Numbered from the stretch's first letter, positions 12,670 through 38,617 are shown. The stretch is DNA of 64,000 nt from Ignavibacteriota bacterium (GCA_963776895.1 CAVZOL010000009.1:146030-210029); one strand, 5' to 3'. Translations and numbers: made by a program. The notes: generated by a model not told the origin, from the sequence alone.

Positions 12670-14232
12670 ATGGCCAAAACATTGGGACTCAATATTGGCA
12701 CCACATCTATAGGATGGTGCCTCATGGAGGATAAAAACCGAATCGTTCGCTCCGGAGTGAGGATTTTCCCGGTTGGTGTGCAGGAAGATAAATACGCTAA
12801 AAGCAGCGTAGAAGAATCAAAAAACGCCGCGCGACGAACCGCACGCGGAATTCGGCGAGGTTACGACCGCTATAAGCTGCGTCGCAAACAACTGCGCCGA
12901 GTGTTGCTTGAAATGAATATGCTCCCCGACCGGCTTGAACTTCCCTCCGCACGGGCGCTCTATGAACTCCGAGTCCGTGGACTTGACGAGAGCCTTGAAC
13001 TCAAAGAGATCGGTCGAGTTTTGCTACACCTCAACCAGCGTCGCGGTTTCTTGAGCAATCGAAAGACAGCTTTGAAAGATGGCGAAAAAGAACGAAGCGA
13101 GATTAAGCTCCAAATGAATGAACTCCGACAGCGGGTTGCAGATTCAGGCCTACGCACGCTGGGAGAATTTTACCTTTCGCTATACCAAGCGAACGAGGCC
13201 ATTGAGAATTGGCACAACCCAGATCAGCCGGTTGAAAGAATCCGTAAACGCTTCGTCCATCGCTCAATGTACGAGGAGGAATTCGAAGCAATTTGGAAGA
13301 CACAATCGAAATTTTATCCCGAAATTCTGACCGAAGAGCGTCGCCGCGAAATAAAAGAAAGATGTATTTATTATCAGCGACCGCTTAAATCTCAAAAAGG
13401 AAGGGTAGGCAAATGTCGATTCGAGCCAAAGAAGCGTGTCGCGCCTCGAAGTTCTTTGCTCTTCCAGGAATTCCGGATTTGGGAAACACTTAGCCGTATC
13501 CGAGTGACAGACAATAAGAGACACCTCGGGCCTCTATCGCTTGAAGAGAAGGAAATTCTTGCCGAAGTCTTAGGAGAGACCGATGAGCTTTCGCAGGCCA
13601 AGATAAAGACGCTCATTCGGCTTCCTAAAGCGGCATATATGAACGACATTGACAAAATCAAGGGAAATACAACTGTGGCTAAGATTATGAAGGTGGTTGG
13701 GCAAAATGCCTGGCGCTTGATTCCTCTAGAAAAACGCGAGCACATTTGGCATGTGCTCTATTTCGCACCCGATGAGAGTTGGCTAAGGGAATGGTGTAAA
13801 AAAAATCTCAGCCTCTCGGAAGAACAAGCCGAGGCATTCTCCGAAATTTCGCTCGAACCGGATTATTCCCGCATTAGCCACAAGGCAATCAATAAAATGC
13901 TTCCCTTTCTCAAGAAAGGTATGGATTACTCCGAAGCAAGCAAAGCTGTAGGTTATCACCATTCGTTTGACGAAGAGACACAAGGCAAGGATCGAGTTCT
14001 CGAAGATAAGATTATTCGGAAGCCCAACGATGAAATCGATCAACTCCGCAGCCCGATTGTTATGCGTGCCTTAGGTGAAACCGTTTCACTGGTTAACGCA
14101 ATAATACAAGAGGAGGGACGACCAGATCAAATCCGCATTGAATTTGCTCGATCCATGAGAATGCCGAAGGATGTTCGTGAGAATATGAGAAGAAATAATC
14201 TCGACAAAGAGAGGCAACGTGAAGAATATTGA
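12670..14232 (+). CDS. cas9: Cas9 (type II-C), N-terminal part: RuvC-I, bridge helix, REC lobe and RuvC-II
   Basis: Contains LGLNIGTTSIGW (RuvC-I motif with Asn where Asp is expected), the Arg-rich helix KNAARRTARGIRRGYDRYKLRRKQLRR, and IRIEFARS (RuvC-II Glu). It ends at a TGA and continues in the next frame. Confidence 0.9.
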   Translation: MAKTLGLNIGTTSIGWCLMEDKNRIVRSGVRIFPVGVQEDKYAKSSVEESKNAARRTARGIRRGYDRYKLRRKQLRRVLLEMNMLPDRLELPSARALYELRVRGLDESLELKEIGRVLLHLNQRRGFLSNRKTALKDGEKERSEIKLQMNELRQRVADSGLRTLGEFYLSLYQANEAIENWHNPDQPVERIRKRFVHRSMYEEEFEAIWKTQSKFYPEILTEERRREIKERCIYYQRPLKSQKGRVGKCRFEPKKRVAPRSSLLFQEFRIWETLSRIRVTDNKRHLGPLSLEEKEILAEVLGETDELSQAKIKTLIRLPKAAYMNDIDKIKGNTTVAKIMKVVGQNAWRLIPLEKREHIWHVLYFAPDESWLREWCKKNLSLSEEQAEAFSEISLEPDYSRISHKAINKMLPFLKKGMDYSEASKAVGYHHSFDEETQGKDRVLEDKIIRKPNDEIDQLRSPIVMRALGETVSLVNAIIQEEGRPDQIRIEFARSMRMPKDVRENMRRNNLDKERQREEY

Positions 14233-15961
14233 GAATTTCTCGAAAAGGAAAATGGGATGGGCTGACATTTCACGAAGCCAAATTACAAAGTTCGAACTCT
14301 GGCTGGAAATGGAATTTGCCGAAGAAGATCTACGAAAAATTAATTCTTCGATCGATGTCGAGGAGTTTAGGAAATTCGTCGATAGGATTAAGCCATCGGA
14401 TAAACAGAAATACGAGCTTTGGATGGAATGCGGACGTATTTCTCCTTATACTGGAAAAATCATCCCGCTCGGGCGACTTTTTAGTCCAGACATTGAGATC
14501 GAGCACATTGTACCTTATAGCAAATCATTCGATAATTCGTTCCGAAACAAGACATTATCTGAAAGGGAATTTAATGCCGCAAAGGGAAATGATACACCTA
14601 TAAAGTATTTCGAAAAGCAAGGAGCCGAGTCGTTGCGTCATTTTAAAGAAAGAATTAAGGCGCTGCCGCGAATTAAGCAAGAGCGGATGCTTCAAGAAGA
14701 ATTTGACGAATTTCGTCCCGGCGACATTGAGAGTACTGCGTGGATTGCAAAAGAAGCTCGGAACATTTTACGCCGCGTTTGTTTGGACGTTCGTGCAACT
14801 GACGGCCAAGTAACAAATCTTTTAAGGAAGTATTGGGGACTCAATAAAATTCTCAATCTTGCTGGTGAGAATGAGAAGGAACGCAAAGACCATCGGCATC
14901 ATGCTATTGACGCATTCGTAATTGCAAACACCGATAACTGGTGGGTAAACCTTCTGAGTCAAGCAAGCAAAATCGATCCATATCGAAAATTAAGCGATAA
15001 TATCTTGGAACTTCTTCGCACGCAGGCAGGGCGGGATCTGGTAAAAGCCGCAGGCATAGGAGAACCGGTCGAGGTTGAGGGAAATGACCCGCTCCAACTG
15101 CAAACTACAAATCCCTTAACGGGTGAAATTGTTGCAGGAGGTATCCCCGGCCCATACCCCAACCACCGTCATGAATTGGAAGATGCGCTTTCTAAAATGC
15201 TAATCTCGTATCGCAACGAAAAACGCTTGCTCTCTACAAAAAAGAACAAGTACCGTTATTCACACCCAGACGGACAGAAAAAAATCCAAAAATCAATTGC
15301 GGTGCGTGGGCCGCTTCACGCGGAGTCTGTTTTCGGACAAATTTCAAATTCCCACAATAATGGAGAATTAGAATTTGTAATCAGAAAGCCGCTTTCCTCA
15401 CTCGATAAAATGAAACAGGTTGAGAAAATTGTCGATCCGGCAATTCGGAAACTTGTTAAGGATCACATTGAGCGAAACGGCGGGGAATCTAAAATTAAGG
15501 ATGCACTGCAAAAGCCTCTTTTTATGATGAGTTTGAATGGCAAAAAGCTCATTCCAATCCACAATGTTCGAATGACAGAATCAGCCACCCAACTCATTCA
15601 GCTTCGACCGAAGGAGAATCCAAAATTATTTGTAGATTCTGGCTCGAATTATTGTATGGCAATTTATGGCGATTCAGAAGGAGCAGAACGAGATTATGAA
15701 ACCATCTCATTTTACACAGCCGCACGAAGAGCCATGGCAAACGAAGCTATTGTTAGAACAGAGAAGGAAGGATTGCCTCTTCTCGTCGAGCTAAAGCAGA
15801 AGGATATGGTAATTCGATACCAAAAGAATCCTGATGAAATTGAATGGGAAAATCTTGATTACATTGCCACGAACCTCTTCTTTGTGATAAAAGTCGATAC
15901 TGCCGGACAAATTTTCTTAGGACGGCACACTCGCTCTAATTCTCAATTTAAAAAAGGATAG
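14219..15961 (+). CDS. cas9: Cas9 (type II-C), C-terminal part: HNH, RuvC-III and WED/PI region
   Basis: HNH region is DIEIEHIVPYSKSFDNSFRNKTLSEREFNAAKGNDTP. RuvC-III is DHRHHAIDAFVIA. The two parts together are about 1,095 aa, typical of type II-C. Confidence 0.9.
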   Translation: MKNIENFSKRKMGWADISRSQITKFELWLEMEFAEEDLRKINSSIDVEEFRKFVDRIKPSDKQKYELWMECGRISPYTGKIIPLGRLFSPDIEIEHIVPYSKSFDNSFRNKTLSEREFNAAKGNDTPIKYFEKQGAESLRHFKERIKALPRIKQERMLQEEFDEFRPGDIESTAWIAKEARNILRRVCLDVRATDGQVTNLLRKYWGLNKILNLAGENEKERKDHRHHAIDAFVIANTDNWWVNLLSQASKIDPYRKLSDNILELLRTQAGRDLVKAAGIGEPVEVEGNDPLQLQTTNPLTGEIVAGGIPGPYPNHRHELEDALSKMLISYRNEKRLLSTKKNKYRYSHPDGQKKIQKSIAVRGPLHAESVFGQISNSHNNGELEFVIRKPLSSLDKMKQVEKIVDPAIRKLVKDHIERNGGESKIKDALQKPLFMMSLNGKKLIPIHNVRMTESATQLIQLRPKENPKLFVDSGSNYCMAIYGDSEGAERDYETISFYTAARRAMANEAIVRTEKEGLPLLVELKQKDMVIRYQKNPDEIEWENLDYIATNLFFVIKVDTAGQIFLGRHTRSNSQFKKG

Positions 15962-16048
15962 AAATGTTGATGTATTTCAAGTGCGGGCCTCCACAATACG
16001 GGCCGCAAGAGTCGAAATTACTTCAACAGGGAAATTAAAGAGGCTACC

Positions 16049-17014
16049 ATGATCCGCCGCACTCTGTACTTCGGGAACCCCGCGTACCTTTCGACGAAGG
16101 ACAACCAGCTTGTCATTGAGCGGCAGCCTGCGCCTGAAGAAGAGGAAATACCGATTACGACGGTTCCCATCGAAGATATCGGCGCTATTATGCTGGACGA
16201 TCCTCAGATCACGATCACACAGCCGCTCCTGCGGGAACTTCTGAAATCGAACGTTGCGGTCGTTAGCTGTGACGAGCACCACATGCCGGTGGGAATGTTT
16301 CTGCCGTTAGCAGGGAGTGGAGTGCAGCCGGAGAGATTCAAATACCAGCTTCGGGCCTCGAAACCAATGCGAAAAAATTTGTGGGCGCAGACAATCGATT
16401 TCAAGATTAGAAATCAGGCGTCTCTCCTGGCATTATCTGGTAAGCCATCGCCCAATATGCTAAAATGGTCGTCAGATGTTAAGTCCGGTGATGCGGGAAA
16501 TTTGGAGGGTCGTGCTGCCGTCTATTATTGGGCGAATATTTTCCCTGAAGAACTTAGCTTCAAACGCGACCGCTATGGCGAACCTCCGAACAATCTTCTT
16601 AATTATGGCTACGCCGTTTTGCGCGCCATGACCGCTCAGGCGTTGGTTGCAAGCGGCATGTTACCGACGCTTGGAATCCATCATCGCAATAAATACAATG
16701 CTTATCCACTCGCGGACGATATTATGGAACCCTACCGTCCATTCCTCGATGCTATAGTGCTCGAAATTGTAAGGAACGGTGAGGACTTTACAGAACTTTC
16801 AACATCGGTCAAAAAACAGCTTCTTTCTCTTCATACGGTCGATGTAGTAATGGCCGGCAAGCGACGTCCGCTTCATGTTGCGATGCAGCGCACTGCCGCT
16901 TCGCTCGCATTTTGTTTTTTAGGCGAACGGCGCAGAATTTTATATCCGGAATTTCCTTTTGGAACCGAACCTAATTCACCAACTATTATTAGGAACTGGC
17001 TGGGTGGTAACTAA
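16049..17014 (+). CDS. cas1: CRISPR-associated endonuclease Cas1, type II
   Basis: Has the Cas1 C-terminal catalytic region NLLNYGYAVLRA...GIHHRNKYNAYPLADDIMEPYRP. It is followed immediately by cas2. Confidence 0.95.
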   Translation: MIRRTLYFGNPAYLSTKDNQLVIERQPAPEEEEIPITTVPIEDIGAIMLDDPQITITQPLLRELLKSNVAVVSCDEHHMPVGMFLPLAGSGVQPERFKYQLRASKPMRKNLWAQTIDFKIRNQASLLALSGKPSPNMLKWSSDVKSGDAGNLEGRAAVYYWANIFPEELSFKRDRYGEPPNNLLNYGYAVLRAMTAQALVASGMLPTLGIHHRNKYNAYPLADDIMEPYRPFLDAIVLEIVRNGEDFTELSTSVKKQLLSLHTVDVVMAGKRRPLHVAMQRTAASLAFCFLGERRRILYPEFPFGTEPNSPTIIRNWLGGN

Positions 17015-17353
17015 ATGCAAAACTCACGATTTAACGAATACCGAACCTTGTGGACCATGGTACTCTTCGATCTTCCTGTCTTGACCAAAAAAGATCGGAA
17101 GGAATATGCAAAATTCAGGAAGGCTCTCCTGAAGGATGGCTTTAGCCTTTTCCAATTTTCAACATACATGCGTCACTCGTTCAGCCGTGAGAACGCGGAA
17201 GTGCATAAGAAGCGGGTGAAATATGCGCTTCCGCCGAAAGGTAAAGTCGGAATCTTAACCATCACCGATAAGCAATTCGGCTTGATGGAACTATTCGAAG
17301 GAGAATCGCGCGTGGAGAGCGAACGCCCTCCGCAGCAACTCGATATGTTCTAA
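17015..17353 (+). CDS. cas2: CRISPR-associated endoribonuclease Cas2
   Basis: 112 aa. [26 protein letters not shown] is a typical type II Cas2 N-terminus. Its start abuts the cas1 stop. Confidence 0.9.
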
Positions 17354-17411
17354 TTTTTTTATCCTGATTGTCCCTCTAACTCCTTATTTGTCAATAATTT
17401 GCTGTCATCGT

Positions 17412-19461
17412 ATTAAAACCATAAAACTCGAAAAAACAATCTGAAAGCAGATCACAGCTTACCGTCGCAGAGTTCGCACGTAGCCTGAAGATTAAAACCA
17501 TAAAACTCGAAAAAACAATCTGAAAGCAGATCACAGCAAAGCTTTTCAATATGGCAATGGGAGCTTTATTAAAACCATAAAACTCGAAAAAACAATCTGA
17601 AAGCAGATCACAGCATCAGCTTCCCGAGTGATGCCGTAAGAGCAATTAAAACCATAAAACTCGAAAAAACAATCTGAAAGCAGATCACAGCTCTTCGCAA
17701 TAAACCAAAACTTCGTATAGCATTAAAACCATAAAACTCGAAAAAACAATCTGAAAGCAGATCACAGCCTTCCGGTGGCGGTGGAGTAGATTCCGTTCAT
17801 TAAAACCATAAAACTCGAAAAAACAATCTGAAAGCAGATCACAGCGTTCGCGGGTCTTTCCATCCGATCTGCGTTATTAAAACCATAAAACTCGAAAAAA
17901 CAATCTGAAAGCAGATCACAGCCAAGGCAACGAGAACGCTACAATGGCAACGATTAAAACCATAAAACTCGAAAAAACAATCTGAAAGCAGATCACAGCC
18001 TAATAGGGGAGCTTAAATACAAGCTGCTTATTAAAACCATAAAACTCGAAAAAACAATCTGAAAGCAGATCACAGCAGGAAGAGCTACGCGCAACAGGGC
18101 GAGCATATTAAAACCATAAAACTCGAAAAAACAATCTGAAAGCAGATCACAGCCCGAGGGTTGACCGTGACAAATTACGAACATTAAAACCATAAAACTC
18201 GAAAAAACAATCTGAAAGCAGATCACAGCATGCTTGGAATAGTTAAATCACTATCCACAATTAAAACCATAAAACTCGAAAAAACAATCTGAAAGCAGAT
18301 CACAGCTATTGATGGGCGTTGTGATTTTCATTTGCTATTAAAACCATAAAACTCGAAAAAACAATCTGAAAGCAGATCACAGCTTGTGAGCGACAACCAA
18401 AAGTCTTTCATGCATTAAAACCATAAAACTCGAAAAAACAATCTGAAAGCAGATCACAGCTGTTCGACTACAACCTATACGGCGAACCGGATTAAAACCA
18501 TAAAACTCGAAAAAACAATCTGAAAGCAGATCACAGCTTTCGGGAGGGCTTATGTGGATATGTTGACATTAAAACCATAAAACTCGAAAAAACAATCTGA
18601 AAGCAGATCACAGCAACCTTACTGCCCAAGAAAAAGTTGCCGCTATTAAAACCATAAAACTCGAAAAAACAATCTGAAAGCAGATCACAGCCGGGAGCCA
18701 TTGATGACGAGCGTTTGGCGAATTAAAACCATAAAACTCGAAAAAACAATCTGAAAGCAGATCACAGCCGCAACCGGCAAGCCACCCCCTGAGCCTGCAT
18801 TAAAACCATAAAACTCGAAAAAACAATCTGAAAGCAGATCACAGCCCTTGCGGAAGGTGCGTATCTTCCCGCGCGATTAAAACCATAAAACTCGAAAAAA
18901 CAATCTGAAAGCAGATCACAGCAGGACGCGGGAACCGAAAGAAAAAAAAGATATTAAAACCATAAAACTCGAAAAAACAATCTGAAAGCAGATCACAGCA
19001 AAGCAGTGTTAACTAATCTATTACAACAAATTAAAACCATAAAACTCGAAAAAACAATCTGAAAGCAGATCACAGCAGTTGGCACTACCGAGATCGGACA
19101 GTCCACATTAAAACCATAAAACTCGAAAAAACAATCTGAAAGCAGATCACAGCTTTGAATTCAGAAGCTTGTTTTTCGAGCAGATTAAAACCATAAAACT
19201 CGAAAAAACAATCTGAAAGCAGATCACAGCACCAACGACGCCCGATCTGCTTTGCACTTAATTAAAACCATAAAACTCGAAAAAACAATCTGAAAGCAGA
19301 TCACAGCAGGAACAAATACGCACGTTCTCGCAGAACTATTAAAACCATAAAACTCGAAAAAACAATCTGAAAGCAGATCACAGCTTATAGCTCTTCTTCC
19401 TCTTCCTCGTTCCGATTAAAACCATAAAACTCGAAAAAACAATCTGAAAGCAGATCACAGC
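17412..19461 (-). CRISPR. CRISPR array with 27 copies of a 47-bp repeat and 26 spacers of 29-32 bp
   Basis: The plus-strand repeat is ATTAAAACCATAAAACTCGAAAAAACAATCTGAAAGCAGATCACAGC, and all copies look identical by eye. The period is 76-79 bp. Arithmetic on first and last repeat starts (17412 and 19415) confirms 27 repeats. The minus strand is assigned from tracrRNA complementarity. Confidence 0.97.
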
Positions 19462-19548: not shown

Positions 19549-20418
19549 CTACATTAATTCATTCATCTCTACCTCCATGAGCTTCTTGACCCACGACCGG
19601 TGTTCCCACTCCTCCACAATATGCCAGATCGATTTCGAATACGCCGAAAGCATCCCAAGCGCGCCGCGCCCGCCGCTGTAAGGAAGAATCGGGCGAAGCT
19701 CGTGCGAGAACACGAATGCCGATAATCCCAACCGGTGCCGAAGATCCAGCAGCGATGCGGCAAGCTGTTTTTTCTGAAGGTCGGAATACGCAGCGAACTC
19801 CAGCGAGTTCACCAGCACGATGCTCGCGTCGTTACGGACGATCTCCAGTTCCAGCGATTCCGGTGTAAGCATCGAGGACGGGCAATCGATAATGCGAAGG
19901 TTCTCCGGCGAGGGTAGATCGACCGAATCGTCGAAATTATCTTTGGTAACTTTCGGAAGATATCGCTGGAACGAGGTCGGAGCCTTCATGCCGAGGTAGT
20001 AGAGCGCGCGCGCAAAACCGGCCGTCATAAGGTCCGCGCTGGCGTAGGTATTGAAGAGCACCACATTCCGGTCCGGATATTTCTGCGCCATAAACAGCGC
20101 GAGCGTACCCGCGATCTCCGCCGAACGCTGGATGGACCGGCTGAGCACCAGCGTAACCTCGCCCGAATAAGCATGGTACGACTGCATTCCTCGGTTATAG
20201 GTAATAAGCCGTTCCGGTTTATTGTCGGCGTTCGCTCTCGCCGCATCGAAAACTTGCATGAGCCTGAGCGGCGCGGGACGATGACCAAGTGTTGCTGTTT
20301 GTGGCGACGACGCTGAATCTTGTTCGAGTATCATATTCTTGTCCTTCCTGACTGTGATTAATGTGATTATGATGAGATGTGTGGGATAATAATCCCCCTC
20401 CCCATTTTCATCTTTCAT
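19549..20418 (-). CDS. Hypothetical protein, possibly a RecA/DnaB-like fold with a degenerate Walker A
   Basis: The pattern GEVTLVLSRSIQRSAEIAGTLAL...IVLVNSLEF...SAFVFSHE resembles a P-loop, Walker B and sensor layout, but there is no GxxxxGK[ST]. The likely start is the Met at 20334. Confidence 0.35.
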   Translation of the reverse strand: MKDENGEGDYYPTHLIIITLITVRKDKNMILEQDSASSPQTATLGHRPAPLRLMQVFDAARANADNKPERLITYNRGMQSYHAYSGEVTLVLSRSIQRSAEIAGTLALFMAQKYPDRNVVLFNTYASADLMTAGFARALYYLGMKAPTSFQRYLPKVTKDNFDDSVDLPSPENLRIIDCPSSMLTPESLELEIVRNDASIVLVNSLEFAAYSDLQKKQLAASLLDLRHRLGLSAFVFSHELRPILPYSGGRGALGMLSAYSKSIWHIVEEWEHRSWVKKLMEVEMNELM

Positions 20419-20570
20419 CTTTTATATTTCATCTTTGCCCAATTATGGTGCTATAATTAGCAGTTGCGCATAAAAGCAACATTGAGGACAAAACGTTCGC
20501 ACAAATATCAAAAAAGTTGAAATTTCTTTAAGACATTGGTGCCTATGGCGAAATTGAACTAAAAAGGAGT

Positions 20571-20625
20571 GTAACGACGAACCTTCAGGTTCGGCGGATC
20601 ATCACACCGAGCCTGAAGGCTCAAT
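20571..20625. repeat. Double-hairpin palindromic element
   Basis: GAACCTTCAGGTTC (20579-20592) and GAGCCTGAAGGCTC (20609-20622) are each self-complementary and complementary to each other. The element is headed by GTAAC. Confidence 0.6.
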
Positions 20626-20721
20626 GCCACACTCCGAGCAAAACTGATCTTGTGAATTCGGATGTTATAGAAAAAGATGCTTCCTATCATTTAGTAAACC
20701 GATATTTTAAGGATTTCAACG

Positions 20722-20916
20722 ATGCCACGCGCTAAAACACCTGATTTCGCTCGGCTCGACGATTACGATATTTATGTACAAAGCACTCCGCTCACCGAAG
20801 AGGAGCACAAGCGTTTGAGCGCAATTATTAAAGCGAACCACGAGAAATACGCCCGAAGCAAGTCGCTACGTTCCGTTCCCAAAACCCCGAAGCGCAGCAA
20901 AGTCACAGGCCGCTGA
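20722..20916 (+). CDS. Small basic hypothetical protein (64 aa)
   Basis: ORF only, with no recognisable motif. Confidence 0.3.
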   Translation: MPRAKTPDFARLDDYDIYVQSTPLTEEEHKRLSAIIKANHEKYARSKSLRSVPKTPKRSKVTGR

Positions 20917-21001
20917 AAATAACGATCCCGCTCCCTGCAACGCCATCGAGTTGCGCATGAACAAATAGGGAAGAAGTAGACCGTTTCCTACTGCTAGCAA
21001 G

Positions 21002-21964
21002 CTACAACTCGAATTGATTTGATGATGCAAGAATGATTGTACGAATTGTCGCGAAAGCAACGTGGACATACTGTACGCTGGTTTCCTTGGTTATCCCCCA
21101 TGTTCTGCCCGTAGCGGGATCAGTACCATGGTCAGCAGCATTACGAACGTGTCCCAAATACTTCAACATAAAAGTGTGCTTTTTCAGAAGGTGACCAGCG
21201 GTCTTCAATGCATCTACTTTTGCATTAATACCAGTGGCAGTAGTCAAAGGGACATTGTGAACCGTTCCCATTTGAGCAAGGAACGACTCAATAGCATTCC
21301 CAACGTGCAAAATTGGAGCCTTCGTATCTCCGCCTTCGGCCAGCAATTGAAAACCGGTAATGAGAGGGTTTAGAATTTCGTTGCGATCTATCCAGCGCAC
21401 AGCAACCTCGCCCAAACGCTCAACTACAGCGAGCTCCGCATCGGCACGGTTTTGCGCGACAGCGAGTAATGCAGAAATATAACTAGCATTTGACTTTTCA
21501 AGTTTATCTATAGATAGGCGGCCTCCACCCTCCTGAATCAAACTCTTCGAAAAGGTTCCTAAGTCTACGAGTGTACCTTTTATCTGTTCACGGGTGCGAG
21601 AGAGACTGAACGTGACCCTCACATTATTGGCGGCACGAGTTGCATCATTAGTATCCGACAATCTCTGTTTGAAGAGCGCATAAGGAGGATAATCCTCTAA
21701 AAGAATTCGAAGAACTGCGCATCTCTGAGTTTCGTCCGACGTAACGAGGTAGCTTGAAAATGGGTGTGAGCCGCTATAAGATGCTGAGGTCTTGGTAAGT
21801 AAACCAATTTGGACAGCCATGTCCATTGCATCGCTTGCTGCAGCCACATCGATGTCGAGCAATTGAGAAAGAAAGTTAGCATCACAGCTGGTGCCGTAAG
21901 TAACTACCGCATCTACCGCACCGATAACATTTTCGGCAACGGTTGGAAAGATGTTAACGGGCAT
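21002..21964 (-). CDS. Hypothetical protein with a C-terminal HEPN-like domain
   Basis: The C-terminal roughly 120 aa are helical and contain LGHVRNAADHG, an Rx4H HEPN RNase motif. The N-terminal two thirds are unrecognised. Confidence 0.5.
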   Translation of the reverse strand: MPVNIFPTVAENVIGAVDAVVTYGTSCDANFLSQLLDIDVAAASDAMDMAVQIGLLTKTSASYSGSHPFSSYLVTSDETQRCAVLRILLEDYPPYALFKQRLSDTNDATRAANNVRVTFSLSRTREQIKGTLVDLGTFSKSLIQEGGGRLSIDKLEKSNASYISALLAVAQNRADAELAVVERLGEVAVRWIDRNEILNPLITGFQLLAEGGDTKAPILHVGNAIESFLAQMGTVHNVPLTTATGINAKVDALKTAGHLLKKHTFMLKYLGHVRNAADHGTDPATGRTWGITKETSVQYVHVAFATIRTIILASSNQFEL

Positions 21965-22042
21965 CGTTGATTGTTTATACTATTGTAGTGTTCTCGGCGG
22001 CCTGCTTAGATACTTCGTCAATGACAGCGCGAAGTTTTGAGC

Positions 22043-22714
22043 CTAATGTGTCAAGATCTTATAGCTGACACTTACCTGCAGGTCGATTTTGATAGACAGT
22101 GAAACTCCTTCCGACTGCCTAACCATCCTCATCGGTGCGGCAGTGGGAATCACTGCTTCGACTGTTTGGGTCAGCATATCGATCTTAGGAGCTCGTCCAA
22201 ACTCCTGGGAAGAGGATTGCTCACCATCAACTGCTATAATAAGTCCATTCTCAGCTTCATTGACCAACCCACCAATTCTCAAAATTTCGAGTATGGTTCC
22301 TGCGCCTGTCATAACCTGCTGAGTACGCGGGAGGCCCGATGAAAACGCCATGTGGTTCTTAAAGCTTGGGGCATCCATTCCATTTCTAACACGTATTGCA
22401 GAGACCATCCTTTGTAGAAAAGTGTTATTGGTTGCGATTTCCCGCCATGCGCTTGCAACTTCGTATTCTACATTATGTGTCATAGCCATCGCTAGTTTCC
22501 TACCCATCTCTGTCACCGATTTCTGGTTACCGCCATCAACAATGCCAGCGCCTAGAAGGAAACCATTATTTCCACTTATGACTGTTCGATTAAGTGCTGT
22601 CGCGTTAGCAATGTCATCCAAAGATGCCGGACCTTTTTCTTGTCCGTAGGCTTTGATTATTTTGGAAAGCTCTTCGTACGAAGAACAAGGGAATTTGAAT
22701 TTGTCTTCAGCCAT
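22043..22714 (-). CDS. Hypothetical protein, possibly tandem winged-helix, forming an operon with the HEPN protein
   Basis: Same strand as the HEPN gene, with a 78-nt gap. It has no catalytic motif. Helix-turn-helix-like stretches include LDDIANATALNRTVISGNNGFL. Confidence 0.4.
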   Translation of the reverse strand: MAEDKFKFPCSSYEELSKIIKAYGQEKGPASLDDIANATALNRTVISGNNGFLLGAGIVDGGNQKSVTEMGRKLAMAMTHNVEYEVASAWREIATNNTFLQRMVSAIRVRNGMDAPSFKNHMAFSSGLPRTQQVMTGAGTILEILRIGGLVNEAENGLIIAVDGEQSSSQEFGRAPKIDMLTQTVEAVIPTAAPMRMVRQSEGVSLSIKIDLQVSVSYKILTH

Positions 22715-22861
22715 TTTAATACCTCAAAGGTCGTTATGTTATGGTGTTGTCTCTTTAAATTGAGATGTAACGAAAAGTCCCAAAAGCAACAACCGTTATT
22801 GATTATTAGAGCCTATTCGTTTCTTTCATTGCGATTGAATGCTACTGAACACCACGGGCAC

Positions 22862-23007
22862 CTATTGTGGGTTCCGTGCAATCCTAAATGGCGCTTGTTT
22901 ATGAACCCTCCTGCTGGCTTTGGCCGCCCGCGCGCCCCACAAACCCTGCGGCGTGCTGCGCCAATTCGCGGTGCCTTCAAATTCTTCTGCACTCATCCAT
23001 GTTAAAC
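22862..23007 (+). repeat. Cassette-boundary repeat, copy 1 (attC-like candidate)
   Basis: The core is CTATTGTGGGTTCCGTGCAATCCTAAATGGCGCTTGTTTATGAACCCTCCTGCTGG, followed by a GC-rich variable part. It ends in GTTAAAC (23001-23007), 4 nt before the ATG at 23012. Confidence 0.6.
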
Positions 23008-23011
23008 CCGC

Positions 23012-23869
23012 ATGGAGATTTCAATGAGCGATAAAAAGAAAGTCATAATTGTAACAGGTGCAGGACGCGGCATGGGCGCGGACATCGCTAAGGCGCTGCT
23101 CTCGGCTGGTCACAAAGTTATAGCAACGGGCCGCAATCCAGATAATGTGCGTAAGGCACTCGGCGAAGGGGAGAATCTTTTAGTCGTCAAACTCAATGTT
23201 ACCGATCGGCGAGATGCCGAGGCAGTTGCCAAAGCAGCCCTTGACCGCTTCGGTCGTATTGACGTTCTGATCAATAATGCTGCAAACTTTTATGCAGGTT
23301 ACTTTGAAGAACTATCTCCTGAACAAATGGAGAGGCAGTTATCGGCAAGTCTTTTTGGCCCGATGAACGTAACCCGCGCGGTGTTGCCCGTCATGCGCAA
23401 GCAGCGTTCGGGGCACATCATAACCATTTCCTCGACAGCCGGCCTTGTTGGCTTTGAATTCGGCAGTGCTTATGCTGCGTCGAAGTTTGGCGTAGAAGGC
23501 TGGATGGAATCACTTCATGGCGAGGTCGCGCCATTTGGGATCAACACTACAATAATCAATCCTGGATTTTTTCGTACAGAACTCCTCACGGAGCAATCGA
23601 CGAACTACGCGGTACCCTCCATTAAAGATTATGATGAACAGAGAGCCAAGATGCTTGCATATTGGAAATCCCAGAATGGCAAGCAATCGGGCGATCCGAA
23701 GAAGTTGGCGCGAGCGCTGGTAACCATTGTTGAAATGGAAAACCCGCCTGAGCGATTTTTAGCCGGTGCGGATGCCGTCGCAACTGCCGAGCAAGTGGCC
23801 ACGAATCTGAAAGATCAGGCCGAAGCTTTTCGCGAGCTATCATCCTCACTCGCAATCGATGGAGAATAA
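23012..23869 (+). CDS. Short-chain dehydrogenase/reductase (SDR) family oxidoreductase
   Basis: Has VIIVTGAGRGMG (TGxxxGxG) and a YAASK catalytic Tyr/Lys motif. Confidence 0.85.
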   Translation: MEISMSDKKKVIIVTGAGRGMGADIAKALLSAGHKVIATGRNPDNVRKALGEGENLLVVKLNVTDRRDAEAVAKAALDRFGRIDVLINNAANFYAGYFEELSPEQMERQLSASLFGPMNVTRAVLPVMRKQRSGHIITISSTAGLVGFEFGSAYAASKFGVEGWMESLHGEVAPFGINTTIINPGFFRTELLTEQSTNYAVPSIKDYDEQRAKMLAYWKSQNGKQSGDPKKLARALVTIVEMENPPERFLAGADAVATAEQVATNLKDQAEAFRELSSSLAIDGE

Positions 23870-24515
23870 AATGCGAATCGGAATTCTGGGTTCGGGATTG
23901 ATGGGCGGGAAGCTCGGAACGATCTTCACGCAGGCCGGGCACGATGTTATCTTCAGCTATGCTCACAGTGCCGACAAATTGAACAAGCTTGCTCACCAGG
24001 CAGGAGGAAACGCTCGTTCGGGAACGCCACGCGACGCCGCAAAGGATTCGGACGTGTTGTTACTTGCCGTGCATTGGTCGCGGATCGACGAAGTGCTGAA
24101 GCAGGCCGGGGATCTCTCCGGCAAAGTGATTATTTCTTGCTCGCTTCCCATGGATGCTGACAATACGAAGCTCATCATTGCTAACAATTCATCCGGCGCA
24201 GAAGAACTTGCAAAAAAGGTCCCAAAGGCTCGGATCGTTTCTGCCTTCAATACAATTCCCAGCGAAGTTCTCTTTGGAGTGTACGAAGCGAGGAAGAAAC
24301 CCAACAGGCCGAGCCTTATCTATTGCGGAGATGACGCAAAGAGCAAAGCCATTGCTGCAGAACTGATACGCGACGTTGGTTTTGATCCGCTCAATGCTGG
24401 CCGTTTATCCATCGCGCGGTACATGGAGCCGTTCACACTACTCGTCGCTGAATTAGCATACGAGGGTGATCGAGGCCCGGAGATGGCCTACACATTCAAA
24501 TGGTATGCGAAATAA
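23859..24515 (+). CDS. NADPH-dependent F420 reductase-like / NADP oxidoreductase
   Basis: MRIGILGSGLMGGKLG is a Rossmann motif. The length fits the Npd/P5CR-like family. The likely start is the ATG at 23871. Confidence 0.7.
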   Translation: MENKMRIGILGSGLMGGKLGTIFTQAGHDVIFSYAHSADKLNKLAHQAGGNARSGTPRDAAKDSDVLLLAVHWSRIDEVLKQAGDLSGKVIISCSLPMDADNTKLIIANNSSGAEELAKKVPKARIVSAFNTIPSEVLFGVYEARKKPNRPSLIYCGDDAKSKAIAAELIRDVGFDPLNAGRLSIARYMEPFTLLVAELAYEGDRGPEMAYTFKWYAK

Positions 24516-24543
24516 AATTTAATAAAGAGAATTCACTTGCGAG

Positions 24544-24680
24544 GTGGGTTCCGTCCAAATCCTAAATGGCGCTTGTGTATGAATCCTCCTGCTGTGGCAT
24601 CCCGCGCGTGTACACGGCACCCGCCGGCACACAGGAGCGGAGCCGTGAATGAATGAAACATCCGGGTTCCACTGTTAGGT
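24544..24680 (+). repeat. Cassette-boundary repeat, copy 2
   Basis: The core is GTGGGTTCCGTCCAAATCCTAAATGGCGCTTGTGTATGAATCCTCCTGCTGTGG. It has the internal stem CTCCTG(C)TGTG/CACACAGGAG and ends in GTTAGGT (24674-24680). Confidence 0.6.
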
Positions 24681-24699
24681 GCATTTATCCTAATGTCCC

Positions 24700-25140
24700 T
24701 TGAGCGCCCGCTTCGATAACGCACTCGCGAAAATTACATCGTGGCTATCGGCCCGCCGGAAAAGCGAGCCTCATGCTCCGCGCGTGTATATGTTGCCGGG
24801 GTTCAGAAATTTGCTTGAAGCTGTCGCAAAAGAGGACGGTGCGCTTGCTGAGAATTTCACGAAGATGTTGAGCGCCGATCCCGATAAACCGAAACGTGGA
24901 AGGAATGTAGATGGAACTCGCTGCCACAAAACCGATCTCGCCAAAGGCAATCGCGCGGCTATGTACCGGGTTCTCTATTACCACCGGAAGGCAAAGAACG
25001 AAGTTTATCTCATTCTTCTTTTCGCCAAATCCGATCAGAACAATTTAACGGCGGATCAAGTAAAGAAAATCAACTATATCACAGACTCGATCGATAAGGG
25101 AGCGATTGACCTCATTTCGCTTGACGAGCGTGATTCATAA
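24700..25140 (+). CDS. RelE/HigB (Gp49)-like toxin
   Basis: GNRAAMYRVLYYHRKAKNEVYLILLFAKSDQNNLTADQVKKI matches the Gp49/HigB-type core pattern. The ATG at 24790 is the more plausible start. Confidence 0.5.
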   Translation: MSARFDNALAKITSWLSARRKSEPHAPRVYMLPGFRNLLEAVAKEDGALAENFTKMLSADPDKPKRGRNVDGTRCHKTDLAKGNRAAMYRVLYYHRKAKNEVYLILLFAKSDQNNLTADQVKKINYITDSIDKGAIDLISLDERDS

Positions 25141-25396
25141 TCTTTTGGAGCGATTGTTTAGGATTCTTCATGTCAAGCTCATATACCCGTACCTGCCCAA
25201 GATCATTCAGGCTTTCATCCAGCGCTTTATCGATAGCTTCGCGATCGAACACAGCCTCGTGTTTCGCCTTCCTTTTGTGGCGAATTGAGGCTTTTTCCTC
25301 TTTTTTCGAGGAAAGCGCATCGGAATGTAATACGGCGGTATTCATACTCAATATGTGATACACATTAAGAGCCGGTTGAGTTTCAAAGTCATTCAT
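25112..25396 (-). CDS. Small hypothetical protein (94 aa), convergent with the HigB-like gene
   Basis: An ATG lies directly next to the repeat core (MNDFETQ...). The sequence is charged and helical. The upstream part of track ORF 25112-25522 is repeat sequence. Confidence 0.3.
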   Translation of the reverse strand: MNDFETQPALNVYHILSMNTAVLHSDALSSKKEEKASIRHKRKAKHEAVFDREAIDKALDESLNDLGQVRVYELDMKNPKQSLQKIMNHARQAK

Positions 25397-25397
25397 G

Positions 25398-25530
25398 CTA
25401 TTGTGGGTTCCGTGCAATCCTAACTGGCGCTTGTTTATGAATCCTCCTGCTGCGGCATCTCGCGTGCTGGCAATTTCGCGTGGTGTGCGGCCGCATCGTC
25501 GGCGATGCTCACCCCGCCGCACAGTTGGGC
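25398..25530 (+). repeat. Cassette-boundary repeat, copy 3
   Basis: The core contains CCTAAC. The stem is CTG(C)TGCGGC/GCCGCACAG. It ends in GTTGGGC (25524-25530). CCTAACTGGCGC can pair with GC(C)GC(A)CAGTTGGG, leaving two extrahelical bases. Confidence 0.6.
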
Positions 25531-25540
25531 TGGCAATATC

Positions 25541-25756
25541 TTAGAGTTTGTGCTTGAACTCTTCGAGCGAGAGCCCTGCTTGGTTTAAAATACTTCGGAA
25601 TGTTCCGGCTGGCAACACCTTCCGGTTCGCTGGGACGATAACGATACGGCCAGCGCTGTCGTTGAATTTTGCATGAGAGCCGCGCTGCGATTTTTTACGA
25701 AAGCCGAGCCGCTCCAATGCGCGGACGACCTCGACGGACGAAAAGTGTTCAGGCAT
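25541..25756 (-). CDS. hicA: HicA mRNA interferase toxin
   Basis: VVRALERLGFRKKSQRGSHAKF is the canonical HicA motif. Length is 71 aa. Confidence 0.85.
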   Translation of the reverse strand: MPEHFSSVEVVRALERLGFRKKSQRGSHAKFNDSAGRIVIVPANRKVLPAGTFRSILNQAGLSLEEFKHKL

Positions 25757-25958
25757 CGATCAATGCGGTGCCTGTTTCCACGGATTCGACATTGGAAAAT
25801 TCTAAATACTCGCCGTCCTCGAAATAGAGCGCGACAGCCTCTTTCAAATTCTCGATCGCCTGTTCCCGCGTGTCGCCGCACGATGCGACCTCTACGTTCA
25901 GGCAATGTGAAACGTATTGGTCATCTTCTTTCCAAACAACGTAGTTGATCTGGTGCAT
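25749..25958 (-). CDS. hicB: HicB-like antitoxin
   Basis: YVSHCLNVEVASCGDTREQAIENLKEAVALYFED is an HicB N-terminal fold pattern. It overlaps hicA by 8 nt. Confidence 0.75.
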   Translation of the reverse strand: MHQINYVVWKEDDQYVSHCLNVEVASCGDTREQAIENLKEAVALYFEDGEYLEFSNVESVETGTALIDA

Positions 25959-25999
25959 TAGTATATCCTCTCATTTGCAACACTCCAAATTTTCGAATG

Positions 26000-26150
26000 A
26001 GTTCCAACGCGGCACCCGCCAGCGGCGATCCTCGCGCGGTGTACGGCCGCATCGTCGGCGATGCTTCCATCGTCGGCGATGCTTCCCGCCACAACTAAAG
26101 GGGAGTGTCGCCGGGGTCGGCGGCCACCACGCGATCGGGTGAGGGGTCGT
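26000..26150 (+). repeat. Chimeric, partial copy of the cassette-boundary repeat: it has the variable 3' parts but lacks the core
   Basis: It shares CGGTGT(G/A)CGGCCGCATCGTCGGCGATGCT with copy 3 and GCCACA(A/G)CTAA(A/G)GGG...GGCCACCACGCGA with copy 4. It also has an internal duplication of CATCGTCGGCGATGCTTCC. Confidence 0.5.
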
Positions 26151-26152
26151 TG

Positions 26153-26344
26153 CTATTTACCTATCTTGTCGAGTACGGCACGCTTAAACCAAGCGGGCAC
26201 TTGGTTCTCCTTCAGCACCAATGTCGTTCCGTTCGTAATTTCGGCGAGCCATGTGTGTTTACGTCCATCCACCGAGTTATCGAACATACTTTTACCGGAA
26301 CCATTGGGCCCGGCAAACATGCGAATGCGTGGGATCGCGTTCAA
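26153..26344 (-). pseudogene. Truncated P-loop (zeta-toxin/AAA-like) gene fragment
   Basis: RMFAGPNGSGKS is a Walker A motif, but only 63 aa remain. The ORF ends at the edge of the chimeric repeat. Confidence 0.45.
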
Positions 26345-26592
26345 CGGATTTGAATCGGCTTGCCTTGTTCGACGGAGTACGGTGGATCGATCTTCTTAAT
26401 CTTCTCTCGCCTGCCATCCGGGAAGACTTTGTAGATGTATCCATCTTCTGCAATAAGCACATCCATTCCGGACTCGATCGTTCTCTTAAATGCCGCCGAA
26501 AATGCATCACCCGAAAGCGACGGAAATGTATTCTCTAATTGCTCGAGTGTTTGCTCATCCTGGATCATAGCTGTTTTCCTTACCACAACCAA
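26341..26592 (-). CDS. Small hypothetical protein, a putative antitoxin partner of the truncated P-loop gene
   Basis: It overlaps the downstream fragment by 4 nt. The likely start is MIQDEQ at 26568. Confidence 0.35.
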   Translation of the reverse strand: MVVVRKTAMIQDEQTLEQLENTFPSLSGDAFSAAFKRTIESGMDVLIAEDGYIYKVFPDGRREKIKKIDPPYSVEQGKPIQIR

Positions 26593-26630
26593 CCACGATA
26601 ATTCTTACAGCGTTCCTACACCAGCACCTA

Positions 26631-26808
26631 CTATCGGTTCCGTCGGTTCCATGCAATCCTAAATGGCGCTTGTTTATGCATCCTCCTGCTGTGGCATCCC
26701 GCGCGCTGTATGCGGCAGCCCGCCACAGCTAAGGGTGAGAGCCGCCAGGGTCGCCGGCCACCACGCGAGCGAATCGAATGAAAAACAAAAAGGCATCGTT
26801 TGTTGGGG
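26631..26808 (+). repeat. Cassette-boundary repeat, copy 4
   Basis: The core is GGTTCCATGCAATCCTAAATGGCGCTTGTTTATGCATCCTCCTGCTGTGG. The stem is GCTGTGGC...GCCACAGC. It ends in GTTGGGG (26802-26808), 4 nt before the ATG at 26813. Confidence 0.6.
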
Positions 26809-26812
26809 AAGT

Positions 26813-34733: not shown

Positions 34734-34920
34734 CACCCAGCCGCTCTTCTCGTACCACCTTCATCGTTCCATCGGGCTGCGGCACCACCCATTGCAGGAG
34801 GTTGGGTTCCGGAGAGATCACCATCGGCTCGCCGGAGCGGCGGTGGGCTTCTATTACTTTATCTATGGCGCGCTGTCCTGCTTCAATTACTTGATCCATA
34901 TTTCCTCCATAATTCTCCAT
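34714..34920 (-). CDS. Small hypothetical protein (68 aa) downstream of the zeta-like gene
   Basis: Internal Met of track ORF 34714-35076 (MENYGGNMDQV...). No motif recognised. Confidence 0.25.
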   Translation of the reverse strand: MENYGGNMDQVIEAGQRAIDKVIEAHRRSGEPMVISPEPNLLQWVVPQPDGTMKVVREERLGAISSQT

Positions 34921-35472
34921 ACATAAATTCATCAACAACAATTCGTTTCGTCGAAGTGCCGGAAGCAATCTTACCGAAGATTTGTGAAGAGTTATCGAAT
35001 AATTGCCACTCATCAGCCATTGGAAGATAGAGATCGAAGAAATTTTGCAGGCTGCGGTCGTATCTGCGGAGCACATCTTCGCGCGGCACGTTGTGTCCTC
35101 CCTCGCGTACCCGCTCCGCGATCCGACTCAGTGAAAGTTCTACGGAGTTGAGATAAATGTAATAGAGCCGAACATCATAGCCGATCTCTTTTGCCATTTC
35201 AATGAGAGAAAGATAGGTTTTCCCGCTCAAGGTCGTCTCTAACGCGAAGGAGATCTTTTCGTCGATGAGTTGGTGAACGCGCGTGAGAAGAATTCTCCCT
35301 GCCTCGATCATCGCACCTCCGGCTCGAACGGTGAAATACCCTTCGCGATGAGGTCGGGATTGACGAATTCGCGGACGTTCGTGTACTCCGGTAAATAGGT
35401 ATTGATGAACGTCGTCTTGCCCGCCCCGTTCGGGCCGGCGATGAGGAGTAGTTCGAGATTTGTGTCGGGCAT
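34883..35472 (-). pseudogene. Zeta-toxin/AAA-like P-loop kinase gene with one frameshift
   Basis: My own translation from the ATG at 35472 gives [30 protein letters not shown]...PFEPEVR followed by a stop. It continues in the frame of the track ORF ([16 protein letters not shown]...). The indel is near 35320. Confidence 0.6.
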
Positions 35473-35492
35473 GCGTTTCGGGAAGATGATAC

Positions 35493-35894
35493 TTACCGAA
35501 ATGGGTTTCGGATCGTAAGCGTCCTATCGACGATGAGGCCATCCTGCATGTCTTCACTGTAAAACTCTGAGGCCCCTGCCTGAAGTGCGGCGGCGATCAT
35601 CAAGCTGTCCCAATGAGAAAAATGGTATTGGTTGCGTAGCTCGCTGGCTTTCAGGAAGTCATGTTCGGTTGGGATGATCGGCTCATAATGCCTGTAGAAG
35701 CTACGGATAATTTTTTGAATTTGCGATTCATCAAAATGAGCTTTTCGAAGCAACGAATTGCAGACTTCTCCGATGGTCTGCAAAGAAATACCGATGTCAC
35801 CCAACGCTATCAATTGTTTGGCGCGTTCATGTTTGGAAAGTCCCTGGCTATCGGTGAACGCATAGAACCAGACGTTTGTATCCAAAAACTTCAC
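35493..35894 (-). CDS. vapC: PIN-domain ribonuclease toxin
   Basis: [12 protein letters not shown] (first acidic residue) and [11 protein letters not shown]...FYSEDMQ fit the PIN fold. Length is 133 aa. Confidence 0.8.
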
Positions 35895-35897
35895 TTC

Positions 35898-36155
35898 TTA
35901 GCGTCCTTCATAGATTTCGTCACGCGTGGGCGCCTTTATACCAGGAATGATGATAGGATTCTCGAGATAATACTCAATAGCATCTTCGTCTTCGCGCATC
36001 GGTCGGCGAGGCGGAATATCGTCAACGATTGGTGGCACAGTGACTTTTACATGGAGCAGTTTTTTTCGTGCAAGTTCATTGCGGTATTGATCGGGAACAG
36101 GGATAGTCCCTTCCTTGCTCAAGTGCGTATCAAACTCGATGTAGTCCATAAACAT
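35898..36155 (-). CDS. Antitoxin (AbrB/SpoVT-like) of the PIN toxin
   Basis: 85 aa, ending 3 nt upstream of the PIN start. The N-terminus has a swapped-hairpin-like pattern (GTIPVPDQYRNELARKKLLHVKV). Confidence 0.55.
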   Translation of the reverse strand: MFMDYIEFDTHLSKEGTIPVPDQYRNELARKKLLHVKVTVPPIVDDIPPRRPMREDEDAIEYYLENPIIIPGIKAPTRDEIYEGR

Positions 36156-36509
36156 ACAAACCCCCGCGCCACAGAATTAGTTGAGTCATGCGAAAACTCT
36201 TACGCACCGTTCGGATCTCGAAATTTTCGTTTTTAAACATCCTCGCCAAAAATGTGCTATATTAGGCACTACTATAATGAGCACCTATTCTTGGAGAAAT
36301 TCAAAATAGAACCACGATTCACCGGATTTTCAGGATAAGGAAAAGAATGGAAAACATAGCTTTCATTATGAACGAGTTCCTTGAGAAAGGCAGTTATCAA
36401 CATTTGTCACAGCAAATGGTGAAATCATCTCAGAATTGAGGGTCGATTGTGAGTAATCGGGAACTCACAAAAAAGAAAAACGGCACCTATTTCACGGAGA
36501 CACATAATT

Positions 36510-37544: not shown

Positions 37545-37595
37545 AGGATAAATTAATCAGCACTTTCTATCTTATATTTTTGTATTCTCAAGACG

Positions 37596-38615: not shown

Positions 38616-38617
38616 AA

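Follow-up and report, generated by a model that had tools for sequence, protein, structure and literature searches.

Cassette-like gene units in an Ignavibacteriota genome are divided by repeats that carry a segment homologous to the start of an RluE-type pseudouridine synthase gene

A stretch of 64,000 nucleotides from an Ignavibacteriota bacterium (GCA_963776895.1 CAVZOL010000009.1:146030-210029; hereafter the window, numbered from its first letter) contains a 4.5-kb run of small gene units punctuated by a genuine repeat, of which four copies on the same strand bear a conserved block and a fifth copy lacks it. A preliminary description of this DNA had likened the run to an integron array. 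Its cassette-like architecture is upheld: small accessory units, mostly toxin-antitoxin genes, alternate with a repeat that keeps one orientation and marks recombination junctions. The identity of the repeat with integron attC sites is not upheld, and the caveat attached to it, that the element could be a different kind of recombination site, proves to be the better description. We favor, with moderate confidence, the explanation that the elements are P-O-P′ junctions. Small integrase-less units would have inserted one after another, in Campbell fashion, at the 5′ end of a pseudouridine synthase gene (tandem accretion) and left these junctions behind.

The repeat was delimited by pattern and profile searches. 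A 37-nt core pattern allowing up to three mismatches matches the window exactly four times, always on the plus strand (22880, 24558, 25416, and 26655), with zero matches expected from shuffled sequences. A profile of the core compiled from every known copy and run with nhmmer recovers the same four (22854-22918, 24544-24597, 25398-25455, and 26621-26694; E 1e-16 to 1e-23) and reveals no further and no inverted copies in the 64-kb window. Together with the analysis of repeat families, these matches bear out the four full copies and one chimeric copy of the preliminary description. The conserved core of ~55 nt that it proposed is too short: by alignment, the conserved block, here termed C, extends over ~85 nt, starting at GCACCTATTG and ending at ...CCCGCGCGC, and the homology of copy 1 to related loci covers 22843-22971, with its left start against the loci L004 and L003 at 22843-22848. 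A full element would consist of three parts, namely block C (~85 nt, carrying an ATG), segment O (~35 nt), and a variable GC-rich arm R. The five copies in the window are:

22843..22934, plus strand: copy 1, block C (5′ flank and core, to ...CCCGCGCGC); nhmmer 22854-22918, E 7e-23, and alignment
22936..22972, plus strand: copy 1, segment O, the relic of an RluE-type 5′ coding end, reading HKPCGVLRQF; O profile E 5e-12, and tblastn with the L004 RluE protein
24544..24699, plus strand: copy 2, C (24544-24611), O deleted, then an R-type GC-rich tail; nhmmer E 1.6e-16
25398..25540, plus strand: copy 3, C (25398-25469), partial O (GVLAISRG frame), and a GC-rich tail; nhmmer E 3e-20
25990..26152, plus strand: copy 4, a tail-only junction without C, a mosaic with parts from the copy 3 and copy 5 tails; repeat families and TRF, no nhmmer core match
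26621..26812, plus strand: copy 5, C (26621-26708, in which a short stretch is duplicated), then a decayed O and an R-type tail in common with copy 4; nhmmer E 1e-18, and alignment

The origin of segment O is apparent in L004, a related metagenome contig (part of Ga0206964_10085). On the element strand, this contig carries in order block C with T1_0, ParD and ParE genes, T1_1, a lipoprotein gene, T1_2, a GNAT-like gene, and T1_3, where T1_0 to T1_3 are four copies of one 56-nt sequence with spacings of 699, 871, and 870 nt. The ParDE pair is bracketed by a 151-nt direct repeat (91% identical). T1_3 lies inside an intact RluE-type pseudouridine synthase gene (L004 7788-7195; PF00849, E 4.8e-21), of which it forms the 5′ coding end (…HKPYGVLSQFTA…), and tblastn with the encoded protein reads the following translations from the real gene and from the other copies:

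T1_3 (real gene): SHRYIILHKPYGVLSQFTA
T1_2: SYQYILLHKPYGVLSQFTA (E 1e-5)
T1_1: SHQ*ILFHKPCGVLRQFTA
T1_0: HKPCGVLRHFTA
L003 copy: HKPCGVLSHFTA
window copy 1, 22938-22967: HKPCGVLRQF

Since the copies read as the 5′ end of the synthase, the GC-rich tails begin with a relic of that gene, which is segment O. An in-frame ATG lies 9-15 codons upstream of the histidine in three of the four L004 copies. The in-frame ATG of T1_0 lies inside block C, where it reads MKPPAVAARAPHKP..., and block C appears to occupy the place of the synthase gene leader and first codons.

The window elements are homologous to the C-O-R unit of L004. The alignment of copy 1 with the C-O unit extends over 130 nt and has a score of 210 (shuffled sequences reach at most 43), and its O segment is identical to T1_1 at 31 of 31 nt. 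Copies 2, 3, and 5 align with gaps over O, which is deleted or partial; in copy 2 the gap across O measures ~28 nt. The break between O and R falls at TTCRCGG| in two independent comparisons, as the homology of copy 1 to L003 and L004 ends at TTCGCGG| (22971) and the likeness of T1_2 and T1_3 ends at the matching position, TTCACGGC|. Copy 3 is identical over 55 of 55 nt to copy A of another relative, L001. Within the window, the tails of copies 3 and 4 have 34 nt in common (25476-25509 and 26032-26065) and those of copies 4 and 5 have 53 nt in common (26085-26137 and 26719-26771), so that short direct repeats bracket gene units C and D (listed below), and an 18-nt tandem duplication was detected by TRF inside copy 4. 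All four pairings of left and right core variants occur in the core alignment, a four-gamete pattern which shows recombination inside the element.

Segment O is copied from codons ~15-27 of an RluE/RsuA-type pseudouridine synthase gene. According to the proposed mechanism, a circular unit with an O-containing site would recombine in Campbell fashion with O at the synthase 5′ end. Every such insertion would double O, leave the displaced 5′ end and its start codon upstream, and give the gene a new 5′ end. Repeated insertions would then produce a co-oriented series of unit, junction, unit, and junction up to the gene itself, with internal junctions of the form C-O-R, and the displaced C blocks may drive downstream plus-strand cassettes. 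L004 directly shows how the array is structured, where O comes from, and that direct repeats flank the units, and the homology of the window elements to C-O-R is likewise established. The window array was probably built as in L004 and subsequently decayed, O remaining intact only in copy 1 and C having been lost from copy 4. It would now be an orphan with no synthase gene adjoining it; tblastn with the L004 protein finds no pseudouridine synthase gene in the 64-kb window. Catalysis is best attributed to a site-specific recombinase encoded elsewhere and not to RecA.

The element is present in few copies and restricted to a small number of related Ignavibacteriota. Among the genomes of 185,579 species (one per species), the core was found in two Ignavibacteriota metagenome-assembled genomes (MAGs; L001 and L002) from one Danish sample set, with one exact match per MAG, and in a metagenome collection it occurs in two contigs (L003 and L004). 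Viral contigs, phage records, and plasmid records contain neither the element nor its target. The genome-wide scatter that the preliminary description had set against its own hypothesis is not seen, as the repeat lies only beside small accessory units. Copies within an array are always co-oriented, and in every context the core has such units as its neighbors:

L003: HicAB, and DUF433-like plus DUF5615-like genes (named by eye from translations, no Pfam scan)
L004: ParDE
L005: AbiGi
window, L001, and L011: an 83-aa ORF

The L001 array could not be followed further, since the sole additional contig ends at the same point. It lies in a slot between an esterase and an M24-peptidase gene. In L017 this slot is empty, and in L019 it is occupied by a HindIII-type restriction-modification system; the junctions are not alignable, and the L019 slot has no full C/O element and gives no significant nhmmer match. 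Upstream of the HindIII-like endonuclease gene of L019 (11385-11435), a C-like remnant was spotted by eye, CTGAACACCACCGAACTAT-ATGAATCCTGAAGCTG, matching the left flank and the ATG part of C without its central 39 nt; the endonuclease gene would then start at the ATG of C. This remnant may be a decayed C or a chance match (~0.01). A second repeat, consisting of the palindrome GCTCCGTAGGAGCG with flanking similarity, occurs at unit borders beside the core in relatives (L001 7745-7758, L005 6683-6696, and L011 10998-11011) and is missing from the window.

Several points weigh against serial insertion at the synthase gene. Arrays or single elements occupy no fewer than four loci, but an intact target gene stands beside an array only in L004; the elements of the window, L001, L005, and L011 are found at other loci without the synthase, and extra events such as gene loss, translocation, or the use of secondary sites are therefore needed. 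A clear O is kept in the window only by copy 1, and the case for C as a former gene start comes from one in-frame example, copy 1 and L003A being frameshifted by a GCTT insertion. Three contigs of the same strain as the window (L008-L010, 99-99.9% identity) carry an identical array, and no presence/absence polymorphism is seen across them. The slot between the esterase and M24-peptidase genes gains defence genes without a full C/O element, so that insertion at hot spots does not require the element. A recombinase is likewise missing: Pfam reveals no recombinase or transposase among ~45 ORFs of the window, tblastn with IntI1 and XerD gives no match in the window or in the related loci L001-L012 and L016-L018, and the precomputed Pfam gene listing of L019 contains none. 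The preliminary description had noted that no integrase was in view, which thus holds for the window and extends to ~150 kb of related loci. A literature search returned no paper on rluE as an integration site.

A more far-reaching version of the insertion scheme is at present doubtful. It envisages an integron-analogous platform without attC or IntI, in which a recombinase would recognize a ~35-nt site in the RluE-type N-terminal motif and stack minimal toxin-antitoxin and defence cassettes, the displaced C (promoter and ATG) would express the cassette behind it, and arrays or single units would also reach other hot spots.

The main rival explanation retains the same architecture and dispenses with a dedicated recombinase. 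Units with direct repeats of 55-150 nt would be looped out and inserted again through RecA-dependent homologous recombination, for instance following DNA uptake from relatives. We regard this route as possible, though unlikely. It agrees with the missing recombinase across ~150 kb of contexts, with the four-gamete pattern of core variants as a sign of recombination within the element, and with direct repeats that vary in length (34, 53, 56, and 151 nt), as expected if length is set by shared homology. However, the break points recur at C|O and O|R, the target 5′ end regains an in-frame start with each insertion, as is typical of site-specific elements, and repeats of only 35-56 nt support homologous recombination very inefficiently.

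Less probable still is a lineage-specific intergenic repeat, either similar to repetitive extragenic palindromic (REP) sequences or miniature inverted-repeat transposable elements (MITEs) or a mobile promoter/leader module, which would gather in accessory islands and whose O segment would be a single old capture of a gene fragment. The GC-rich mosaic tails, the other palindromic repeats at unit borders of relatives (GCTCCGTAGGAGCG), and the presence of elements at several loci without the target gene would all be in keeping with such a repeat, as would the C-like remnant directly upstream of the L019 HindIII-like gene, to which it would supply the ATG. A dispersed repeat is difficult to reconcile, however, with the very low copy number of one exact match per MAG, the absence of terminal inverted repeats and short target duplications, the constant co-orientation of copies within an array, and the L004 units, which are flanked by direct copies ending in a real gene.

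Block C also contains an imperfect dyad, AATC(C/A)TAAA-TGGCGCTTG-TTTATGAAT, which is found at 22880-22916 in the window and in other copies and matches at 8/9 positions in L003-type copies; its spacer is the most invariant stretch of the element. The dyad could be a protein-binding site, and taken alone it is not significant. Three further candidates were rejected. A Xer/dif-like site does not fit, as the spacing of the dyad AATCMTAAA-N9-TTTATGAAT is wrong and the dyad, judged post hoc, falls short of significance (~0.1). For a Tn7-like transposon end (TGTGGG), inverted partner copies are absent, and in the case of a coding repeat, no frame is kept through the core on either strand. The 64-kb window contains no tRNA or tmRNA target.

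It is very unlikely that the repeat represents a structured regulatory RNA or a common 5′ leader of toxin-antitoxin and defence genes. The position of neighboring genes may suggest a leader, since in 8 of 10 contexts an opposite-strand gene starts 10-140 nt away from the left edge of C and in 6-7 contexts a plus-strand gene starts downstream, but these neighbors belong to unrelated families in both orientations, and the core shows no consensus promoter or terminator. None of the five elements overlaps an Rfam match at the gathering cut-off or at E up to 10; the listing contains just two matches, mir-247 (22757-22837) and PVT1_3 (24145-24255), both of which are weak chance matches far below gathering scores and lie outside the elements. 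RNAalifold on the core alignment yields 0 compensatory pairs at -8.8 kcal/mol.

The comparison with integrons had been based in part on boxes at the ends of the repeat and on their pairing. Four GTTRRR(Y) boxes are indeed located where they had been described, one in the tail of each full copy (23001, 24674, 25524, and 26802), with a nominal chance of ~0.1 per tail and ~1e-4 jointly. The CCTAA(A/C) motif of the core, which had been proposed as an R″-type partner of the distal box, does not hold up: an RYYYAAC (R″) box is present in none of the window elements, and core and box pair no better than shuffled sequences. In none of nine copies does the conserved 5′ part form a better duplex with any downstream part than with shuffled tails (fractions 0.14-0.98). 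DNA folding of whole elements and of tails results in z values of -0.06 to -2.35 without an end-to-end helix, as opposed to a single hairpin each and z values of -3.4 to -6.3 for two control attC sites (arr-3 and aacA4) from a class 1 integron (L015). A rule-based scan for R″/spacer/L″...L′/spacer/R′ recovers both controls and none of the four full copies, which have neither an inverted R″/R′ pair nor L boxes. Only copy 4 yields a weak R/L-box candidate (26002-26155), at a threshold with a background of 0.6 per kb per strand. Conservation is one-sided, the 5′ block being conserved and the 3′ part variable, and the GTTRRRY box is missing from all six tails of the closest relatives. Nor do the cassette boundaries coincide with the boxes: homology breaks at 22971 and 26708, where the respective boxes lie at 23001 and 26802, and in copy 3 it breaks after CCTGCTG. 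One GTTRRR box per tail, without a partner, a counterpart in relatives, or a break point, is a coincidence left without explanation. The attC identity thus fails with regard to boxes, duplex formation, folding relative to controls, the R/L-box scan, break points, and the integrase search. A true integron array minus its integrase (cluster of attC sites lacking an integrase, CALIN) with unusual attC sites is accordingly close to refuted, for although small co-oriented repeats between small toxin-antitoxin-rich units, the box in four of four window tails, the weak copy 4 candidate, and the complete integrons reported in Ignavibacteriae (PMC9024848) speak in its favor, there is also no intI in the window and related loci and no site after the last unit.

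The gene content of the array agrees with the preliminary description and comprises a short-chain dehydrogenase with an F420-oxidoreductase-like gene, a weak RelE-like gene, a HicA/HicB-like pair, two small ORFs, and a DUF1801/YdeI gene. From left to right, the units and the left neighbor are:

22043..22714, minus strand: left neighbor of the array, a 223-aa protein of unassigned family, transcribed away from copy 1; no Pfam or PADLOC match, L008 gene call and translation
23012..24515, plus strand: unit A, short-chain dehydrogenase (23012-23869) and F420_oxidored-family reductase (23859-24515); Pfam adh_short 3.6e-53, F420_oxidored 4e-19
24787..25389, both strands: unit B, weak RelE-like ORF on the plus strand (24787-25137) and convergent small ORF on the minus strand (~25109-25389); L008 gene calls
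25541..25958, minus strand: unit C, HicA toxin (25541-25756) and HicB-like antitoxin (25749-25958); Pfam HicA_toxin 1.1e-15, DUF7387 5.8e-8
26153..26592, minus strand: unit D, two small ORFs (63 aa; 83/81 aa); no Pfam or PADLOC match, homologues with adjacent core in L001 and L011
26813..27439, plus strand: last small unit, DUF1801/OmdA (YdeI-like) gene; Pfam DUF1801 3.3e-21, OmdA 2.1e-16

The RelE similarity of unit B has a Pfam E value of 0.007 and is below the cut-off. The 83-aa ORF of unit D has C on its start side in all three genomic contexts (window, L001, and L011). The two ORFs of this unit are adjacent in the window and are split in L011 (10001-10957) by a 545-nt segment with a 101-aa gene, and unit D of the window therefore looks like a deletion derivative of a three-gene unit. 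The last unit is not followed by a repeat, and the nhmmer profile finds no core past 26694.

The surroundings of the array form a variable slot rich in defence genes. The region upstream of the array contains a type II CRISPR-Cas locus (12670-19461) with cas9 in two ORFs (12670-14232 and 14219-15961; intact with 1127 aa in the relative L007), cas1 (16049-17014), cas2 (~17054-17350), and a CRISPR array of ~27 repeats of 47 nt (17411-19461). The whole locus is present in L007 and missing between the same flanks in the MAG CAWBEI01 (L005). Between the CRISPR array and the cassette array, at 19549-22714, lie three minus-strand genes (289, 320, and 223/246 aa) without Pfam match, and the defence-system models of PADLOC give no match for these neighboring proteins of unassigned family; a RNAADHG motif (Rx4H, HEPN-like) was spotted by eye in the 320-aa protein. 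The same slot holds a D12 methyltransferase and AbiGi in L005 and HATPase_c_3 and radical SAM genes in L007, and the genes from the conserved 289-aa “anchor” gene to the first core differ in three of three genomes. The slot looks like a defence-island slot and could harbor a new defence system. Further defence-type genes are located at 34883-39604 and 47529-49127, including a Zeta-toxin-like gene, a radical SAM gene, a C5 cytosine methylase with a BsuBI/PstI-type endonuclease, and a 532-aa TIR-domain protein. Several genes of the window are split into adjacent ORFs, namely PBP2 in three (7861-9818), cas9 in two (12670-15961), and recJ in two (59378-61293). Along with the left-neighbor gene, which encodes 223 aa in the window and 246 aa in the near-identical (99.8%) contig L008, this suggests indel errors of long-read assembly rather than real pseudogenes.

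Compared with known systems, the array most directly recalls the tandem accretion of integrative elements and their decayed, integrase-less derivatives, cis-mobilizable elements (CIMEs), at an att site in a gene end, for example of the ICESt1 type at the end of fda in Streptococcus (PMC5704250). In both, att-type direct repeats that stem from a target-gene end separate units without integration genes, each new insertion uses the att copy at which the gene stays intact, and internal junctions are chimeric and decaying. Unlike ICESt1 and its CIMEs, the present units are tiny (0.6-1.7 kb, with one or two genes each) and have an rluE-type gene as their target, at its 5′ end. None of the members seen bears an integrase, and most arrays, including that of the window, no longer adjoin the target. 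Targeting of a 5′ end is known from SXT at prfC (PMC4542580). There, too, the 5′ coding end of a housekeeping gene is entered, its start is replaced, and the displaced native 5′ end is found on the other side. Conversely, SXT is a ~100-kb conjugative element with its own integrase and normally present in a single copy, whereas several minimal units stand in series here.

Integrons and CALINs share with the present arrays a co-oriented series of small, largely promoterless or toxin-antitoxin cassettes between recombination-site repeats, in which a fixed upstream promoter-like block could express the cassettes (PMC9024848). The present repeat differs in that it is derived from a host gene, has no R/L boxes, folded hairpin, or AAC/GTT pair, and is not accompanied by IntI; a GTTRRRY box plus a repeat is hence insufficient for calling an integron. 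Small toxin-antitoxin modules bounded by short sites are also found in pdif modules, which are Xer-dependent and carry toxin-antitoxin and resistance genes on Acinetobacter plasmids between 28-bp sites of 11-6-11 structure in alternating orientation. Like these modules, the present units are proposed to be moved by a recombinase encoded elsewhere; in contrast to them, the only dyad, that of block C (AATCMTAAA-N9-TTTATGAAT), is wrongly spaced, and the copies are all direct. To our knowledge, among systems that stack very small integrase-less cassettes, only integrons are well understood. If the present arrays were built at a site derived from a host gene, other phyla may reach an integron-like architecture by another route, here with toxin-antitoxin and defence genes beside a CRISPR-Cas locus, and the 35-nt O segment together with block C would offer a concrete handle for finding the recombinase. 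Judged from the sequences compared here, the arrays would thus follow the known logic of tandem accretion at a gene-end site, applied to units as small as integron cassettes and integron-like in outcome.

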